A DNA stretch of 10,892 nucleotides, from contig JBJCIZ010001016.1 of the NCBI GenBank assembly GCA_051294375.1, positions 1-10,892 of the forward strand. The letters run 5' to 3'. Every line of letters begins with the position of its first letter. The stretch's first letter is position 1. The position numbers were made by a program, and so were the translations under genes. Origin of the DNA: Paraspadella gotoi (Eukaryota; Animalia; Chaetognatha). Shown in pieces: positions 2,919 to 10,892 of this stretch. The notes under the pieces are model-generated. The model saw only the letters and a list, made by a program, of their open reading frames with translations. It was not told the origin of the DNA and did no database searches.

Positions 2919-3506
2919 TAGATCCGCCCTATTGTTAACGGTCAACAAAGCCTGGTGACGGCGATTCAAAAGAAGAGAAGAGTCCAGACCGTTCGTACAG
3001 TCGTACAAGCTCTCAGTGATCGCTGAGTTTACGACAAACGTGCAATTATTTAAAGAAGTAAGGCCAACGTATGTGGCCGACGCCTCATTCGCCGGCCAAA
3101 CTCCAACGTCAAATTCGAATCTTAGAGTCGAAGTGCAGGCCACAAGCCGACGGCGACATTCGCTCTCAAACCCGTTATCCCATCTCCAGACCATCTGACA
3201 CCGCTCAACACGTTTTTCGTCAGGCAAAGCAGGCATTCATCCTCCATTACAGCACCATATGAAGGACCTTACCGTGTAGTGAATCGGCAATGGAGCTTAA
3301 CGTCACCATCAAATCCAAGTAATAGGCCGCGAAATGCTAAACATCGCCCCAGTCAAACGCAGCGTGGGTTTTCAACGAGACGTTGGGAAGGTCGGTCAGG
3401 GACATCATCAGCGAACGCCCCAGCAGGCCGCCAGCCCGGCCCTACGAACGAGGACGCCGGCAAGAAGAACAACTCGGACAACTCGTCAAATATTCAACGC
3501 ACAGGG
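2919..3506 (+). mobile_element. Ty3/Gypsy pol fragment, 5'-truncated copy (end of RNase H plus integrase C-terminal GPY/F region), frameshifted
   Basis: IAEFTT...VADA (ORF 3016), DTAQHVF (ORF 3071) and CCATATGAAGGACCTTAC = PYEGPY near 3255-3272. Homologous to the later copies. Confidence 0.85.
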
Positions 3507-4010
3507 TCGCCCAACCGGTTCCTCCTCCTCCTCCTTCCCCCTCTCACTCCCGCCTATGCCGCAGTCATAACACCCCACCTTCCCCTCCAACCCAACCCAT
3601 CGTCCCGCTTTACGGTCTTTTCCTACTCCCTCTCTCTCAGACCTCCATGCGAGACGAGTCAAATCCCCGAAGGCGAGAAGAGAGAATCACAACAACAACA
3701 ACAACGAAAAAGGAAAAAACAACTCACACGAATCGAAGATCCCTCAAACCAACGCCAGAGAACTTTTTCCTAGCAGGATGCCAATCACTAATCGACCCAC
3801 TTACTCTGTCGTGCTCAAGGAGATGCTTCGACGTCAAAAAAATACAGAATGACAACAACAACAACGACGAAGAAGAAAAACAAAAATAAAAACCTCCCCT
3901 GTCGACCTAATTGACAGTCGGGCAATCTCTTCGTCCGCGGCATCCTCTGGTCTTGCCTCCCGTCTTCATCGCTCGACTGTCCAATATTACATCGTTACCC
4001 ATAGTGTTTT

Positions 4011-4040
4011 TTGGAAATTTTGGAATTTTGGAAATTTTTT
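4011..4040 (+). repeat. Short ~9-mer tandem (TTGGAAATT)x3, present in each full unit
   Basis: TTGGAAATTTTGGAATTTTGGAAATTTTTT, recurring near 6421-6448 and 8755-8784. Confidence 0.8.
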
Positions 4041-4167
4041 CAATTTTAGATTTTGTGAAATTTTATTTTTATATTTCTAATATTTTTATTAATCAACATA
4101 CTTTCAAGTCACACAAGATGGACGAACAACCATTTTTGTTTATTATATATTACAAAGGGGGCATGAA

Positions 4168-4288
4168 GGGCCAACTTGAGCGAATCAGATCCTTTTATAG
4201 AAATAATTCATATGATTGGATTCGAACCATTCGAAGCTCAGTTCCTGAGTGGACTCGAGCTACAGCTCTGGGCCACTCAGACCGACGC
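4168..4288 (-). ncRNA. Candidate Pol III-type structured RNA, paralogue L (unit 1; noisy copy)
   Basis: Minus-strand consensus GGGCCG TCTGAGTGGC CCA GAGC-TGTA-GCTC GA GTCACTCAGA ACTTGAGT TCGAT GGTTCGAATCC...GATTC GCTCAAGT GGCCT. It has an A-box-like TGGCCCAG, a perfect B-box and stems covarying with paralogue R. Confidence 0.55.
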
Positions 4289-4391
4289 TGATTTCTCAGC
4301 GATTTTGTTATTTCATCTTAAAGCTTTAAATCTAGATTTAGAAATACTTTTGTTTTTCTTAAAACAGTTGCTCTGTTCACCAAAAGATGTC

Positions 4392-4411
4392 TTGGCGCCA
4401 TTTGGCGCCAA
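4392..4411. promoter_or_regulatory. Double TTGGCGCCA(A) dyad motif in the spacer between the divergent RNA candidates (also 6802-6821 and 9118-9136)
   Basis: TTGGCGCCATTTGGCGCCAA is a GC-rich island in an AT-rich spacer and resembles the E2F-type site TTTGGCGC. Confidence 0.35.
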
Positions 4412-4466
4412 ACTTCGTTTCTTTGTTTTTAAAGTTTTAATAAGGTTTAGATTTGATGAGGAATCA

Positions 4467-4588
4467 GGGCTGTCTGGATGGCTCTGATTGTAACTCAAGG
4501 TCGTCCAGTAGCTCGAGTTCGATGGTTTTCGAATCCCATAAGTGGAAGGAATTATTTCTGTAATAGATTGATTCACTCGAAGCGGCCC
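4467..4588 (+). ncRNA. Candidate Pol III-type structured RNA, paralogue R (unit 1)
   Basis: Consensus GGGCTG TCTGGATGGC TCT GAGT-TGTA-ACTC AAG GTCGTCCAGA GCTCGAGT TCGAT GGTTCGAATCC...GATTC ACTCGAGC GGCCC. It forms a three-way junction and contains a B-box. Confidence 0.58.
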
Positions 4589-4882
4589 CATGCCCCACCT
4601 GTATAATCCATGTTGTCGCTTGTTTGAGAAAGTTTCTCCGACGTTGGTTTTGAGAATCTTGTCATCGTTGGCTCATTCCATCTTTTTTCGTTGGTTATTG
4701 TTGTTCTTTTTGCTCTTTTCTTCTTTTTGTTCGGAACCCGTCTCGCGTGAAGCTTGCAGAGAAGAGGAGGAGGGAGCAAAAGCCGTAAAGGGGGGATGGG
4801 TGGATGGGGGAGAAGGGTGGGGAACTTTTTGGGGCTGGGTCAGTGGGAGGAGGGGAGGAGAAGAAAGAGAGGAGCGGGGCGA

Positions 4883-5933
4883 TAAGAACGGAGTGAGGCA
4901 CGGCTTCAGAAACGCGTTAAAAGCTACAGAACTGCCTGACCAACGACGATAAAGGAACTGCAGAGATTTCTGGGGATTGATGAAATTACTACAGGGCGGT
5001 TTCATCCCCAGAGTCAACAACAGATTCGCGTCCCATTGTAACGAGGCCCTCAGTGGCAAAGCGAAAATCTGGACCTGGACAAACGACTGTGAACAAGCGT
5101 TTCAGATCAAAGCGGCAATTACTTATCATCCTGGAAACCGAAGCAAAACTTTGCATCAAAAACGGATGCATCAAGATTTGGCCATTGGAGTGCTGGAGCA
5201 AGAGGCCAAAGGAATGGGAAGCCTCTGGCCTTTTTCTTGCCAAGCTCGCCAAAAAACAACGATTATGGCCTCCGTTCGATAACGAACTTTTCGGCGCCTT
5301 CAAAGCTGTCCCCACTCCAAAGCACAGGGTCAAAGGTAGATCATTTACCTTGTAATACGGATCACCAAGCCTGGTGACGGCGATTCAAAAGAAAGAAGAG
5401 TCTCAGAAAACCGTTCGTGCAGTCGTATCAGCTCTCAGATGATCGCTGAGTTTACACAGACGTGCATTATTTAAAGAGTAAGGCCAACGTTTGTGGCCGA
5501 CGCCTCTCGCGCCAAAGCTCAACGTCAAACTTCGAATCTTATGAGTCGAAGTGGCAGCCACAAACCGACGGCGACATTCGCTAGCAAAAACCCGTTATCC
5601 ATCTCAGGAACCAATCTCGACACCGCTCAACACGTTTTTCATCAGGCGAGCAAGAGCATTTCATCCTCCACTTACAGCAACCATACTGAAGACCTTAACC
5701 CGTGGTAGTGAAATAGCAACGGCCTTAACGTCAGCATCAAAATCCCCAAGTAAAAGGCGCGAAATGCTAAACATCGCCCGCGTCAAACCCAGCGGGGTTT
5801 CAACGAGAACGTTGGAGGTCGATCAGGGACATCCTCAGCGACGCCGCAGGCAGGCCGCCAGCCCCGGCCTGACGAACGAGGACGCCGGCAGAAACAACTC
5901 GGACAACTCGTTCAAAATTATTCAACGCACAGG
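4883..5933 (+). mobile_element. Internally deleted Ty3/Gypsy pol fragment (RT thumb/connection, RNase H, GPY/F tail), frameshifted
   Basis: Pieces FIPRVN, WTNDCEQAFQIKAA, DLAIGVLEQ, PFDNELFGAFKAV, TNLDTAQHVF and LNIARVKP occur in alternating frames. Confidence 0.92.
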
Positions 5934-6324
5934 TCGGCCCGAACCGGTTTCCTGCCTCCTTCCTTCCTCCTTCCCCCCTCTCAACTCCCACCACACCCAC
6001 CTTCCCCCAACCAACCCCGTCCCCTTAGCCGTCTTTTCCTCCCTCTGCGTCTCAGCCTCCATGCGAGCGAGTCAATCCCAAAGCGATGAAGAGAGAATCA
6101 CAACAACAACAAACAACGAAAGGAAAAAAACAAAACTCAACGATCGAAAGATCCTCAAACGCAACGCCAAGAGAACTTTTCTAGCAAGGATGCCAATCAA
6201 CTAATCGACCCAACTTACTCTTCGTGCTCAAGGAGATGCCTTCGACGTCAAAAAATACAGAATGACAACAACAACAACGACGAAGAAGAAAACAAAAATA
6301 AAAAACCCGCCCCTGTCGACCTAA

Positions 6325-6392
6325 TTGACAGTCGGAGCATCTCGTCCCGCATCCTCGGTCTTCCTCCCGTCTTCCTCGGCTCCGACTGTCAA
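6325..6392. other. 12-14 bp perfect stem with a ~40-nt pyrimidine-rich loop (also 3913-3981 and 8663-8725)
   Basis: TTGACAGTCGGAGC (6325-6338) pairs with GCTCCGACTGTCAA (6379-6392). In unit 3, GACAGTCGGAGC (8663-8674) pairs with GCTCCGACTGTC (8714-8725). Confidence 0.8.
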
Positions 6393-6573
6393 ATATTAAA
6401 ACATCGTTACCATAGTGTTTTTTGAAATTTTGGAAATTTTGGAAATTTGTCAATTTTAGATTTTGTGAAAATTTTTATTTTTTATATTTCTATATTTTAT
6501 TATCAACATACTTTCAGTCCAACAAGATGGCGAAACATTTTTAGTTTATTATATATTACAACAGGGGGGCATG

Positions 6574-6699
6574 AGGCCACTTGAGCGAATCAGATTCTTT
6601 TATAGAAATAATTCAATCCATGGTTGGAATCGATACCATCGAACATCAAGTTCTGAGTGACTCGAGCCTTAACCAGCTCTGGGCGCACTCAGACGGCCC
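6574..6699 (-). ncRNA. Candidate structured RNA, paralogue L (unit 2)
   Basis: Tandem copy of 4168-4288. Retains the TCTGAGTG/CACTCAGA and ACTTGA/TCAAGT stems. Confidence 0.55.
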
Positions 6700-6873
6700 T
6701 GATTTTCTAGCGATTTTGTTTTTCATTTAAAGCTTTAAATCTCGATTTAGAAAATCTTTTGTTTTTCTTAAACAAGTTGCTCTGTTCACCAAAAGATGTC
6801 TTTGGCGCCATTTGGCGCCAACTTCGTTTTCTTTGTTTTTAAAGTTTTAATAGGTTTAGATTTATGAGAATCA

Positions 6874-6992
6874 GGGCCTGTCTGGATGGCTCTGAGTTGT
6901 AACTCAAGGTCGTCAGAGCTGAGTTCGATGGTTCGAATCCCAATAAGTGGAGAATTATTTTCTGTATAGATTTGATTCACTCGAGCGGCGCC
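6874..6992 (+). ncRNA. Candidate structured RNA, paralogue R (unit 2)
   Basis: Tandem copy of 4467-4588 with an intact GGTTCGAATCCC. Confidence 0.58.
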
Positions 6993-7288
6993 GTCATGCC
7001 CCCCTGTATAATCCATGTTGTGTCGGCTTGTTTGAGGAAAGTTTCCTCCGACGTTGGTTTTTGAGAATCTTCCATCGTTGGCTCATTCCCCCATCTTTTT
7101 CGTTGTTATGTTGTTCTTTTTTGCTCTTTCTTCTTTTGTTCCGGACCCGTCTCGCGTGGAAACTGCAGAAAGAAGGAAGGAGGGACAAAAAAGCGTAAAG
7201 GGGGGATGTGGGTGGGGGAGAGGGTGGGGATTGGGGCTGGGGTCCAGTGAGGGAGGAGGAGGAGGAGAAAAAGAGAAGGAGCGGGCGA

Positions 7289-8298
7289 TAAGAAGGAGTG
7301 AGGCCGCTTCCAGAACGCGTTAAAAGCTACACGGAAACTGCTCGACCCACGACGATAAAGGAACTGCAGAGATTCTGGGATGAAAATTAATACAGCGTTT
7401 CATCCAGAGTCAACCACAGATTCGCTCCCTTGTACGAGGCCCTCAGTGGCAAGCCGAAAAATCTGGACTGGACAAACGACTGTGAACAAGCGTTTCAGAT
7501 CCAAGCGGCATATTACTTCATCATTCCTGGAACCGGAGCAAAACTTTGCATCAAAACGGATGCTCAGATTTGGCCATTGAGCAGTGCTGGGCAAAGAGGC
7601 CAAAAGGATGGGAGCCTCTGGCCTTTTTCTTGGCCAAGCTCGCCAAAAAACAACGCTTATGGCCTCCGTTCGATAACGAACTTTTCGGCGCCTTCAAAGC
7701 TGTCCGCCACTCCAAGCACAGGGTGAAGGTAGATCATTTACCTTGTATACGGATCACCAAAGCCTGGTGAACGGATTCAAAGAAAGAAGAGTCTCAGACC
7801 GTTCGTCAGTCGTATCAGCTCTCAGTGATCGCTGAGTTTACGACAGACGTGCATTATTTAAAGAGTAAGGCCAACGTTGTGGCCGACGCCCTCTCCGGCC
7901 AAACTCAACGTCAAATTCGAATCTTAAGAGTCGAAGTGGCAGGCCACAAGCCGACGGCGACATTCGCTCATCAAAAAACCCGTTATCCATCTCCCGACCA
8001 ATCTCGACACCTCTCAACACGTTTCGTCAGGCGAGCAGGCATTCTCCTCACTTACAGCACATATGAAGGACCTTACCGTGTAGTGAATCGCAACGGCCTA
8101 ACGTCACCATCAAAATCCCCAAGTAAAGGCGCGAAATGCTAAACATCGCCCGCGTCAAACCAGCGTGGGTTCCAACGAGACGTTGAGGTCGATCAGGGAC
8201 ATCCTCAGCGACGCCCAGCAGGCCCCAGCCCGGCCACGAACGAGGACGCCGGCAGAAACAACTCGGAACAACTCGTTCAAATATTCAACGCAACAGGG
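7289..8298 (+). mobile_element. Internally deleted Ty3/Gypsy pol fragment, frameshifted
   Basis: LDWTNDCEQAFQ, IKTDA, WEPLAFF.AKL, ELFGAFKAVRH, IAEFTTDVHYLKSKANVVADALS and FVRR...YEGPYRVVNR in ORFs 7430, 7546 and 7825. Confidence 0.93.
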
Positions 8299-8901
8299 TC
8301 GCCCGAACCGGTTTCCTCCTCCTCCTCCTTCCCCCTCTCACTCCCAACCACCCCACTTCCCCAACCCACCCTCGTCCCCTTTATGTCTTTTCCTCCCTCT
8401 CTCCTCAGCCCCTGGAGAGGAGTCAATCCCAGAAGCGAGAGAGAGAATCACAAACAACAACAACAACGAAAAGGAAAAACAAATCACGATCGAAGATCTC
8501 AAAACCAACGCCAAGAGAAACTTTTCGAGCAGGATGCCATCACTAATCGACCCACTTACTCTGTCGTGCTCAAGGAGATGCTTCGACGTCAAAAAATACA
8601 GAATGACAACAACAACAACGACGAGAAGAAAACAAAAATAAAACCCCCCTGTCGACCTTAATGACAGTCGGAGCATCTTCGTCCCGGCATCCTCGGTCTT
8701 CCTCCGTCTTCTCGCTCCGACTGTCCAATATTACATCGTTACCCATAGTGTTTTTTGGAAATTTTGGAAATTTTGGAAATTTTTCAATTTAGATTTGTGA
8801 AATTTATTTTTATATTTCTATATTTATTATCAACATATCTTTCAGTCACACAAGATGGACGACAACATTTTGTTTATTATATATTAACAACAGGGGGGCA
8901 T

Positions 8902-9016
8902 GAGCCACTTGAGCGAATCAGTCTTTTATGAAATAATTCATCCATGGTTGGATTCGAACCATCGAACTCAAGTTATAGTGACTCGAGCTACAGCTCTGGG
9001 CCACTCAGACGGCCCC
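8902..9016 (-). ncRNA. Candidate structured RNA, paralogue L (unit 3)
   Basis: B-box on the minus strand at 8950-8960. The GAGC-TGTA-GCTC hairpin is intact. Confidence 0.58.
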
Positions 9017-9191
9017 TGATTTTTCTCAGCGATTTTGTTTTCATTTAAAAGCTTTAAATTCTCGATTTAGAAATCTTTTTTTTTCTTAAAACAGTTGCTC
9101 TGTTCACCAAAGATGTCTTGGCGCCATTGGCGCCAACTTCGTTTTCTTTGTTTTTAAGGTTTTAAATAGGTTTAGATTTGATGAGGAATCA

Positions 9192-9305
9192 GGGCTGTCT
9201 GGATGGCTCTGAGTTGTAACTCAGGTCGTCCAGAGCTCGAGTTCGATGGTTCGAATCCCATAAGTGAGAATTATTCTGTAATAGATTTGATTCACTCGGC
9301 GGCCC
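9192..9305 (+). ncRNA. Candidate structured RNA, paralogue R (unit 3)
   Basis: A-box-like TGGCTCTGAG at 9204 and B-box GGTTCGAATCC at 9248, a 44-nt spacing as in tRNA genes. The 10-bp stem TCTGGATGGC/GTCGTCCAGA is intact. Confidence 0.6.
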
Positions 9306-9500
9306 ATGCTCCCCTGTTATAATCCATGTTGTCGCTTGTTTTGAGAAGTTTCCGAAGTTGGTTTTGAGAATCTTGTCATCGTTGGCTCATTCCCATCTTT
9401 TTCCGTTGTTATGTTGTTCTTTTTGCTCTTTTCTTCTTTGTTCGGACCCGTCTCGAGTGGAAGCTGCAGAGAAAAGGAAGGAGGGAGCAAAAAGCGTAAA

Positions 9501-9581
9501 GGGGGGATGGTGGGTGGGGGAGAGGGTGGGACTTGGGCTGGGTCAGTGAGGGAGGAGGAGGAGGAGAAGAAAGAGAAGGAG
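9501..9581 (+). other. G-run cluster (G-quadruplex potential) followed by a 34-nt polypurine tract (also ~4790-4874 and ~7200-7281)
   Basis: GGGGGGATGGTGGGTGGGGGAGAGGGTGGGACTTGGGCTGGG has seven runs of 3 or more G. Bases 9548-9581 are all purines. Confidence 0.7.
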
Positions 9582-9588
9582 CGGGCGA

Positions 9589-10607
9589 TAAAGAACGGAG
9601 TGAGGCCGCTTCCAGAACGCGTTAAAATGCTACAGGAAAATGCTCGACCCACGACGATAAAGGAACTGCAGAGATTTCTGGGATGATAAATTACTACAGC
9701 ATTTCATCCCCAGAGTCAACCACAGATTCGCCTCCCTTGTACGAGGCCCTCAGTGGCAAGCCGAAAAATCTGGACTGGACAAACGACTGTGAACAAGCGT
9801 TTCAGATCCAAGCGGCATTAAAAAAACTTCATCATCCTGGAACCGGAGCAAAAATTTGCATCAAACGGATGCCTCAGATTTGGCCATTGGAGCAGTGCTG
9901 GGCAAAAGAGGCCCAAAAGGATGGGAGCCTCTGCCTTTTCTTGCCAGCTCGCCAAAAAACAACGCTTATGGCCTCCGTCGATAACGAACTTTTCGGCGCC
10001 TTTCAAAGCTGTCCGCCACTCAAGCACAGGGTCGAAGGTAGATCATTTACCTTGTAATACGATCACAAAGCCTGGTGACGGCGTTCAAAAGAAAGAAGAG
10101 TCTCAGCGTTCGTCAGTCGTATCAGCTCTCAGTGATCGCTGAGTTTACGACAGACGTGCATTATTTAAAGAGTAAGGCCAACGTTGTGGCCGACGCCCTC
10201 TCGCGGCCAAACTCAACGTCAAATTCGAATCTTAGAGTCGAAGTGGCAGGCCACAAGCCGACGGCGACATTCGCTCATCAAAACCCGTTATCCATCTCCC
10301 GACCAATCTCGACACCGCTCAACACGTTTTCGTCAGGCGAGCAGGCATTCATCCTCCACTTACAGCACCATATGAAGGACCTTACCGTGTAGTGATCGCA
10401 ACGGCCCTTAACGTCACCAATCAAAATCCCAAGTAAAGGCGCGAATGCTAAACATCGCCCGCGTCAAACCAGCGTGGTTTCCAACGAGACGTTGGAGGTC
10501 GATCAGGGACATCCTCAGCGACGCCCAGCAGGCGCCAGCCCGTCCTACGAACGAGGACGCCGCAGAAACAAACTCGGACAACTCGTTCAAATATTCAACG
10601 CACAGGG
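9589..10607 (+). mobile_element. Internally deleted Ty3/Gypsy pol fragment (cleanest copy)
   Basis: GVRPLPERV..PTTIKELQRFLG/MINYY (RT thumb). RNase H acidic motifs: TDAS (D codon 9868), NELF (9986), DHK (10061) and VADALSR (10192). HVFVRR...PYEGPY follows (GPY at 10377-10385). No YXDD, no HHCC zinc finger, no DDE integrase core. Confidence 0.95.
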
Positions 10608-10892
10608 TCGCCCGAACCGGTTCCTCCTCCTCCTCCTCCTTTCCCTCTCACTCCAAACCACCCCACCTTCCCCCAACCCACCCTCGTCCCCTTTACGTCT
10701 TTTTTTCTCTCTCTCCTCTCCTCAGACCTCCATGCGAGACGAGTCAATCCCAGAGCGAGAAGAGAGAATCACAAACAACAACAACAACGAAAAAGGAAAA
10801 AACAAACTCACGATCGAAAGATCCTCAAAACCAACGCAGAGAACTTTCTAGCAGGATGCCAATCACTAATCGACCCACTTACTCTGTCGTGC

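Follow-up and report, generated by a model that had tools for sequence, protein, structure and literature searches.

A repeat unit that couples retroelement coding sequence with a pair of inverted arms raises the question of what it is made of and how its parts came together. Such a unit is found in the window, the whole 10,892-nucleotide stretch of Paraspadella gotoi contig JBJCIZ010001016.1 that was analysed. It forms an unstranded tandem array at 2932-10892, which comprises about 3.4 copies of 2.3-2.4 kb and runs off the window end. Unit anchors lie at 2948, 5367, 7760 and 10068, with periods of 2419, 2393 and 2308 nt followed by a partial 825. The tandem copies are 86.5-92.6% identical when gaps are counted and 96.8-98.6% identical without gaps, and the macrosatellite array reported in the initial annotation is real. 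Gaps of 1 nt make up the majority; contigs from public runs show other letters at several inter-copy indels, and the 1-nt indels appear to resemble long-read error. The left end of the array, at 2912-2932, falls within RNase H and not at a long terminal repeat (LTR).

The array is probably a head-to-tail series of a non-autonomous, CsRn1-like Gypsy LTR element on the minus strand (element II), in which neighbours share one LTR and the interior is an inverted, integrase-deleted, related Gypsy element (element I). The unit had been described as a Gypsy fragment joined to an unrelated inverted duplication with RNA cassettes. Instead, the arms themselves are likely Gypsy, consisting of pol tail, polypurine tract and LTR. 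Since the unit is likely built wholly of two broken Gypsy elements, the two cassettes (B and B′) are likely terminal repeats of these elements and not separate RNA genes.

The pol pieces of element I lie on the plus strand. Piece 1 (9591-10212; tblastn, Pfam) holds the end of reverse transcriptase (RT), the connection and RNase H, and corresponds to about residues 400-614 of the relative P0001. Other copies are found at 4886-5512 and 7295-7898. The best pol pieces have tblastn E values of 4e-21 to 4e-29 in a window-sized database, and the Pfam RT_RNaseH_2 match to piece 1 (E 4e-4) is below the cut-off. Piece 2 (10213-10480, with other copies from 3144, 5562 and about 7900) maps to residues ~1070-1190 of P0001. 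It is the C-terminal part of integrase with GPY/F, which scores 49.5 bits against the profile at 10305-10394. RNase H is fused directly to this part, and the ~450-470 codons of the zinc finger and catalytic core are missing. The “RNase H fragment” first recognised does contain RNase H, but the piece is larger, extending from the RT end to the integrase C-terminus. The order of RT, RNase H and integrase, together with Gypsy homology, identifies a Ty3/Gypsy pol, and GPY/F at the integrase C-terminus is a mark of the CsRn1 clade (available part of PMC2582038). None of 72 candidate stretches of viral contigs encodes a Gypsy relative.

The Gypsy pol frame appears to continue beyond TCGCCCG through arm A. 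TCGCCCG and CGGGCGA had been taken for termini adjoining the Gypsy segment; they do lie at the outer arm ends, but on the A side pol-tail homology continues past them. TCGCCCG also occurs within the integrase piece, at 5774, 8146 and 10455. The likely pol tail of element I (8180-8600, plus strand) contains arm A (8299-8528) and a terminal motif (8516-8596). From GPY to a proline/arginine motif, the median spacing is 57 aa in 57 of 62 relatives, and copy 1 has 170 nt (57 codons). From GPY to the terminal motif it is 166 aa (IQR 153-194) in 41 of 62 relatives, and three copies have 146-163 codons. In plain frames, the top four matches to a mid-tail profile are the four copies (12.9, 10.7, 10.2 and 9.1 bits), with 10.0 bits for the best reversed control. 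A terminal-motif profile, with X at one break, scores 14.5 bits at 3753, 12.3 at 8516 and 9.7 on arm A′ at 9370; its best control reaches 10.0, and it also gives a spurious 13.2-bit match in RNase H. The terminal motif had no match in plain frames, a profile of the last 60 tail residues had no real match, and pairwise tail alignments scored no better than shuffles. In three of four runs a contig bridges 8471-8575, where the terminal motif is, by eye, kept through synonymous changes. Motif scores are modest, and arm A is likely the pol tail of element I.

The former “spacer” (8600-8890, plus strand), which contains a short TTTTGGAAA repeat, is by its position between tail motif and G-run likely the pol end and AT-rich 3′ UTR of element I. 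Arm A′ (9345-9588, minus strand) appears to be the pol-tail remnant of element II. It is without the terminal motif and 3′ UTR, and meets the RT piece of element I at 9588. The arms had been given as ~420 bp long; some 430 bp do align in all, but the left arm has ~360 bp that are absent from the right.

Cassette B (8892-9056, plus strand) would comprise the polypurine tract of element I (8892-8898) and a truncated LTR from TG at 8901, which is cut off close to a TTAAAGCTTTAA palindrome at about 9045. Cassette B′ (9110-9315, minus strand) would comprise the polypurine tract of element II (9309-9315) and a likely complete LTR of ~200 bp with TG at 9306; two TGGCGCCA words lie at 9119-9135. At 9057-9109, also on the minus strand, are a primer-binding-site-like TGGTGAAC (9102-9109) and ~50 bp of element II leader. 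A whole unit of LTR, primer site, internal part, polypurine tract and LTR can be read on the minus strand at 6792-9306 (LTRs 9306-9110 and 6996-6792), with an interior of 2.1 kb. The same order, in short motifs, is present in all three full copies.

All six cassette starts have a G-run and CATG. A G-run and TG follow pol in 21 of the 26 related loci that show GPY (78 examined), and a looser junction pattern is found in 29 of 78. The strict pattern occurs at one of six cassette starts, and 5 of 200 shuffles also yield one. TGGTGAAC lies ~200 bp after the minus-strand TG in three of three copies. This word, of 8 nt and noticed post hoc, has three minus-strand matches at LTR ends and four in the window in total, with 0.34 expected. 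The distance from polypurine tract to primer site is 197-208 nt in the window and 138-778 nt in 17 stretches of related loci. ACATCT stands a few bases ahead of TGGTGA at the LTR end in relatives L002 and L006, and likewise in the window. Compared with the tRNA-Trp primer site TGGTGA(G/C)CCC, TGGTGAAC shares 8 nt with L004 and L006 and then departs. The LTRs start with TGA or TGG, not with the clade's TGTGGYG. TG...CA ends are incomplete: TG is present, but the 3′ end is without the CTACA that precedes the primer site in L002, L004 and L006. Because the LTR end is without this CTACA of the closest relatives, the element II unit is probably no longer integration-competent. Model R1 of B and B′ found nothing in 77 related Gypsy loci, and among 79 sources only the six window copies exceeded 20 bits, so the identification of the LTRs relies on position and short motifs.

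The proposed process would start with the placement of element I antisense inside element II, through nested insertion or recombination. Element II would have lost gag and most of pol by deletion, and element I its integrase core together with its 5′ half. The resulting unit may have multiplied via LTR-LTR recombination, unequal exchange or rolling circle, and the copies may then have been homogenised like a satellite. Two of the options first considered, a non-autonomous element carrying pol sequence and a satellite, come close to this anatomy.

Over alignment length, identity is 63.5-66.1% for A/A′ and 62.3-68.1% for B/B′, or 71-78% without gaps. The arms are, as first noted, much more diverged than the tandem copies (62-68% vs 97-99% gap-free). 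An old inversion cannot be concluded from this, since the joining of two families that had diverged beforehand may happen at any point; contigs of public runs contain pieces ~83-85% alike from the same organism. Arm divergence likely dates the split of the two families, not the inversion.

Several known systems resemble the unit in part. The CsRn1 clade (PwRn1, AgCR; PMC2582038, PMC3601003, in the parts available) shares the RT-RNase H-integrase order, GPY/F and a short LTR after a G-rich tract. In relatives, the primer sites are of the Trp type and LTRs begin with TGTGGC. The unit differs in its LTR starts, in having two families per unit, and in being without gag, protease, RT core and integrase core. 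Maize CRM1TR and CRM4TR (PMC3648361, in part) and Drosophila LTR-sharing tandems (PMC5932611, in part) also have a locally homogenised monomer made wholly of Gypsy parts. The former source, in the sections available, derives each CRM repeat from the LTR and UTR of one family, and the latter, likewise in part, describes LTR-sharing tandems as common. The present monomer, in contrast, combines two oppositely oriented families and has pol pieces among its parts. It is a clear example of a macrosatellite formed from nested retrotransposon wreckage, a route already known.

The nested-Gypsy explanation predicts a 2.3-kb RNA, started from the shared LTR, that would run antisense to the RT, RNase H and integrase of a related family. 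This LTR is the only one that looks complete. Its many copies would each yield antisense RNA of a relative's pol, which could matter as a silencing source already in place. A single possible transcript of the unit would combine antisense transposon sequence with an imperfect inverted repeat, as in hairpin-RNA and piRNA source loci, but the arms here are only about two-thirds alike. The host may keep the array as an anti-Gypsy small-RNA source, with piRNA or siRNA pathways supplied either by RNA read antisense from the shared LTR or by an imperfect fold-back of the arms. As the explanation of the array this is unlikely, but as an added function it is possible and compatible with nested Gypsy elements. 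Element I pol is indeed antisense to the only complete-looking LTR, pieces ~83-85% alike exist in the organism, and a read-through RNA is predicted to form 302-370 long-range pairs. Against this, exact matches between the arms reach no more than 20 and 14 nt, and the longest stacked helices between them are 13-23 bp. Moreover, no single strand is favoured for fold-back, because G-U-compatible changes, in three non-independent copies, favour plus in block B (57 vs 27) and minus in block A (53 vs 34).

Collinear arms, with a perfect TTGGCGCCA inverted pair near the centre of the inversion, could also result from an old fold-back inversion of the 3′ end of one element, after which the arms drifted in place. 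This origin is quite improbable. The centre is asymmetric, with the primer-site-like word on one strand only, and the compensatory pairs of B/B′ (3 of 32 predicted pairs altered on both sides) are more readily explained by separate histories under selection than by neutral drift. The cassettes are structured, as had been claimed: in all four copies folded, B and B′ reach z -2.4 to -3.7 on the strand pointing away from the centre. Such folding is not unique to them, as z is -2.5 or lower on one strand at 6 of 24 related junctions. The simplest view of the conserved fold is that two formerly active families retained an LTR stem-loop. A phage blastn of the arms gave just four short chance matches.

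Another model takes B and B′ for a divergent pair of genes for tRNA-derived Pol III RNAs, or for SINE heads, that became associated with a Gypsy fragment. A tRNA-like stretch does lie antisense to the LTR of element I (8939-9010, minus strand; counterpart 9204-9258 on plus), with TRGCY ~43-45 nt upstream of GGTTCGAATCC in the five copies listed. No such box pair occurs in 77 related Gypsy loci. A shared 20-mer falls in tRNA-Tyr in seven of eight prokaryote or phage loci scanned, its one match in viral contigs is in a tRNA stretch, and G-U pairs favour the tRNA-like strand. However, ARAGORN found no tRNA gene in the window, and the Rfam tRNA score is 16.3 bits (E 1.4) with a gathering threshold of 29; Rfam on the whole window gave six matches, which is chance level. 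The end of each cassette coincides exactly with the complement of the G-run/TG junction, and pol-tail motifs occur in arm A. The model is very doubtful. Arms as common dispersed SINEs, a possibility raised at the outset, were not observed: depth in the arm bins does not consistently exceed that in the pol bins, depth being distinct from copy number. The expectation that T-runs would block Pol III does not hold for cassette B, where the first run of at least four Ts comes 306-325 nt past the B box (two copies listed). In related LTR regions, words like the B box on the antisense strand seemed enriched (4 of 16 clusters), and were dropped as support because no A and B pair occurs in the 77 loci.

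Tandem arrays, a non-autonomous LTR-primer site-polypurine tract-LTR build, and tRNA-like TRGCY and GGTTC boxes in the LTR are also known from the TRIMs Helenus, Cassandra and Ajax (PMC10886601, in part). Those are 311-1263 bp long, and Helenus (TRIMp3) is under ~1.3 kb without coding remnants, whereas the present element has 2.5 kb and pol pieces. Here the boxes, at tRNA spacing, are antisense to the LTR and the YGG of box A is missing. In this orientation they could not serve as a promoter for RNA of the element itself, the function suggested for TRIMp3 in the available text. The literature searched, including the available part of PMC10886601, yielded no description of antisense tRNA-like boxes with a conserved fold in two LTR families; the sole related remark in that part is on the similarity of some LTRs to a portion of a tRNA. 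This combination could matter, and an antisense or small-RNA role for such LTRs is possible. A more elaborate scenario, hardly probable, is an animal Gypsy lineage with a tRNA-derived Pol III promoter antisense in its LTR, from which a short transcript would span the lineage's own polypurine tract and the end of pol; the host would have amplified the inverted two-family chimera into a macrosatellite silencing active relatives.

That the array is an artefact of amplification or long-read assembly is highly improbable. Each copy has many private indels, but roughly one position in three differs between the arms, in contrast to a chimeric fold-back, and contigs from two studies bridge the inversion (X5, 8986-9266; X9, 8819-9298). 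In four public runs, contigs account for 28-30 of the 30 unit bins.

The option of a co-amplified module of RNase H protein and two guide-like RNAs gained no support and is scarcely credible: neither start codon context nor promoter is seen at the 9588 joint, no protein so built is among the matches (of searches designed for other ends), and, although RNase H and integrase pieces share one frame in copies 3 and 4 and motif words around the four acidic residues of RNase H are readable in 2-4 copies each, the frame has a one in three chance and recent origin alone would leave motifs retained. As for gag, a CHCC signature was seen by eye in a single relative, L004.

An AT-rich flank occupies the window from position 1 up to about 2930, and a tandem array fills the rest. 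An 11-nt anchor recurs at 2948, 5367, 7760, and 10068, so that the unit lengths are 2419, 2393, and 2308 bp, with a partial unit last; these are here called copies 1–4. The copies are 86.5–92.6% identical with gaps counted and 96.8–98.6% with gaps ignored, most gaps being of a single base. We infer that these gaps are long-read error, so that the true copies are probably closer than measured. In each unit, self-BLAST finds the inverted blocks A/A' and B/B', which are 62–68% alike over the alignment length; the left arm is ~360 bp longer than the right.

The plus strand of each unit carries pieces of a Gypsy relative, element I. With one window frame as query, seven proteins matched, five of them long Gypsy pols. 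Against the related pol P0001, the unit covers residues of about 400–614 (the end of the reverse transcriptase, RT, plus RNase H) and then jumps to about 1070–1190. The integrase zinc finger (827–882) and core (898–993, P0001 numbering) are missing. A second search added 59 relatives. Past the integrase motif GPY, 57 of 62 proteins have a proline/arginine motif (median distance, 57 residues), and 41 of 62 have a terminal motif (median distance, 166 residues). In copy 1, a matching proline/arginine word lies 170 nt past GPY. The four top plain-frame matches to the profile of this motif are the four copies, at 9.1–12.9 bits (reversed control up to 10.0). A candidate for the terminal motif lies 146–163 codons past GPY; with X placed at one break, its scores are 14.5 and 12.3 bits (controls 10.0, one spurious hit 13.2). 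Simpler tests of pol-tail homology failed. Positions 8471–8575 are bridged by a contig in three runs, where the terminal motif is kept, by eye, through synonymous changes. Taken together, motif spacing, profile scores, and the bridging contig are moderate evidence that pol extends beyond TCGCCCG, across arm A, and into the "spacer" between A and B. On the A side this speaks against TCGCCCG as the edge of the Gypsy segment, as the initial annotation had it.

The related proteins (P0001–P0065) belong to a Gypsy sub-lineage, unnamed in the database, in which a long low-complexity insert separates RNase H from integrase. Near the pol end, 41 of 62 share a conserved motif.

B and B' had been described as structured-RNA cassettes. 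They were compared with LTR starts in 77 related Gypsy loci. A G-run and TG directly follow pol in 21 of the 26 related loci having a visible GPY motif. G-run, CA, and TG open all six cassette copies, on the strand opposite to that first annotated; a strict junction pattern of polypurine tract (PPT) and LTR fits only one of the six. On the minus strand, TGGTGAAC, preceded by ACATCT, lies 197–208 nt past the cassette TG in 3/3 copies, with an ATTAAA-type word ~60 nt ahead of it in two. L002 and L006, two related loci, have ACATCT-ACAG ahead of TGGTGA, and PPT and primer site are 138–778 nt apart in related loci (17 stretches). From these starts, positions, and distances, B' resembles a complete short LTR that has a PPT before it and a primer-binding-site-like word after it. 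B resembles a related LTR reduced to about its first 150 bp by a cut near a TTAAAGCTTTAA palindrome. A B/B' model search of the related loci returned no relatives.

Palindromes of the form TGGCGCCA occur twice per unit (9119–9135, 6803–6820, 4393–4410; six matches versus 0.1 expected). The pair presumably resembles sites for E2F, or a primer site of the tRNA-Lys type.

The fold and tRNA likeness of the cassettes are real but modest. The antisense strand folds at z -2.4 to -3.7, and 3 of 32 pairs show compensatory changes on both sides, with only two independent sequences compared. Among related LTR starts, 6 of 24 fold at z <= -2.5. Strong folds are seen at 725–860 of L034 and 4411–4545 of L047 (sense strand, z -4.1 and -3.7), unrelated in sequence to B. 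PMC3601003 ties R-region conservation to stem-loops. In 7 of 8 prokaryote or phage loci scanned, a 20-mer common to B and B' falls within tRNA-Tyr. In the window, TRGCY lies ~43–45 nt upstream, a pairing found in 0 of the 77 related loci. The Rfam tRNA model gives 16.3 bits, under its cut-off of 29. These tRNA-like boxes are candidates for Pol III promoter boxes.

The unit is probably a tandemly arranged, non-autonomous LTR element whose LTRs are shared between neighbours. On the minus strand it would read LTR (9306–9110), primer site, ~2.1 kb of antisense element I, the pol-tail remnant A', PPT, and LTR (6996–6792). An opposite-strand relative would first have been nested or recombined into the element; deletions and then amplification and homogenisation would have followed. 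Tandem elements sharing LTRs form readily through LTR recombination (PMC5932611). Two features, the damage to the LTR end and the position of an array edge within RNase H, suggest that the array now spreads at the DNA level, not via integration. Antisense silencing is plausible as a by-product and unlikely as a selected function; the helices that fold-back could form are short, and the data favour neither strand.

The closest systems are of two kinds: tandem repeats derived from retrotransposons, and TRIMs whose LTRs resemble small RNAs (PMC10886601). CRM-derived repeats (PMC3648361) show amplification and homogenisation as proposed here. Size and coding content set the unit apart from Helenus, and its tRNA-like boxes face the opposite way. 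The CsRn1 clade is marked by Trp-type primer sites and GPY/F (PMC2582038) and by the LTR start TGTGGYG (PMC3601003), which the window LTR starts match only loosely.

In eight DNA-labelled runs (one organism, two studies), 7–11% of sampled window words are present. Contigs of four of nine runs cover 30, 30, 29, and 28 of 30 unit bins (reference, copy 3), and contigs of X5 and X9, from two studies, span B, the centre, and B'. At the A'/RT and RNase H/integrase joints, crossing pieces have <31 letters on one side and are not counted as bridging. For X1 and X2, summed depth is in the tens of thousands, which is no measure of copy number. Three contig records (1, 9, 13) hold pieces ~83–85% alike over 86–109 nt; they lie at RNase H, at GPY/F, and at the tail motif, and point to related families in the same organism. 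Contigs mostly differ from the window at 9158, 9179–9181, 9196, and 9238; at 9179–9196 the window copies agree by eye, which suggests array variants between individuals or loci.

In the flank, an (AG)n microsatellite (2481–2567) has a 34-bp inverted partner close by (2598–2631). On the plus strand, 880–940 resembles a hammerhead core, with CTGATGA, a stem of GACTC and GAGTC, GAAAC, and the palindrome ACATGT. It fits Penelope-type ribozymes as described in PMC6765202. The Rfam scan of the window reported no hammerhead there, and the fold has z = -0.25. The stretch is flanked by a 65-bp inverted pair, 77% alike (745–807 and 1036–1100), which may be a small element's two ends.
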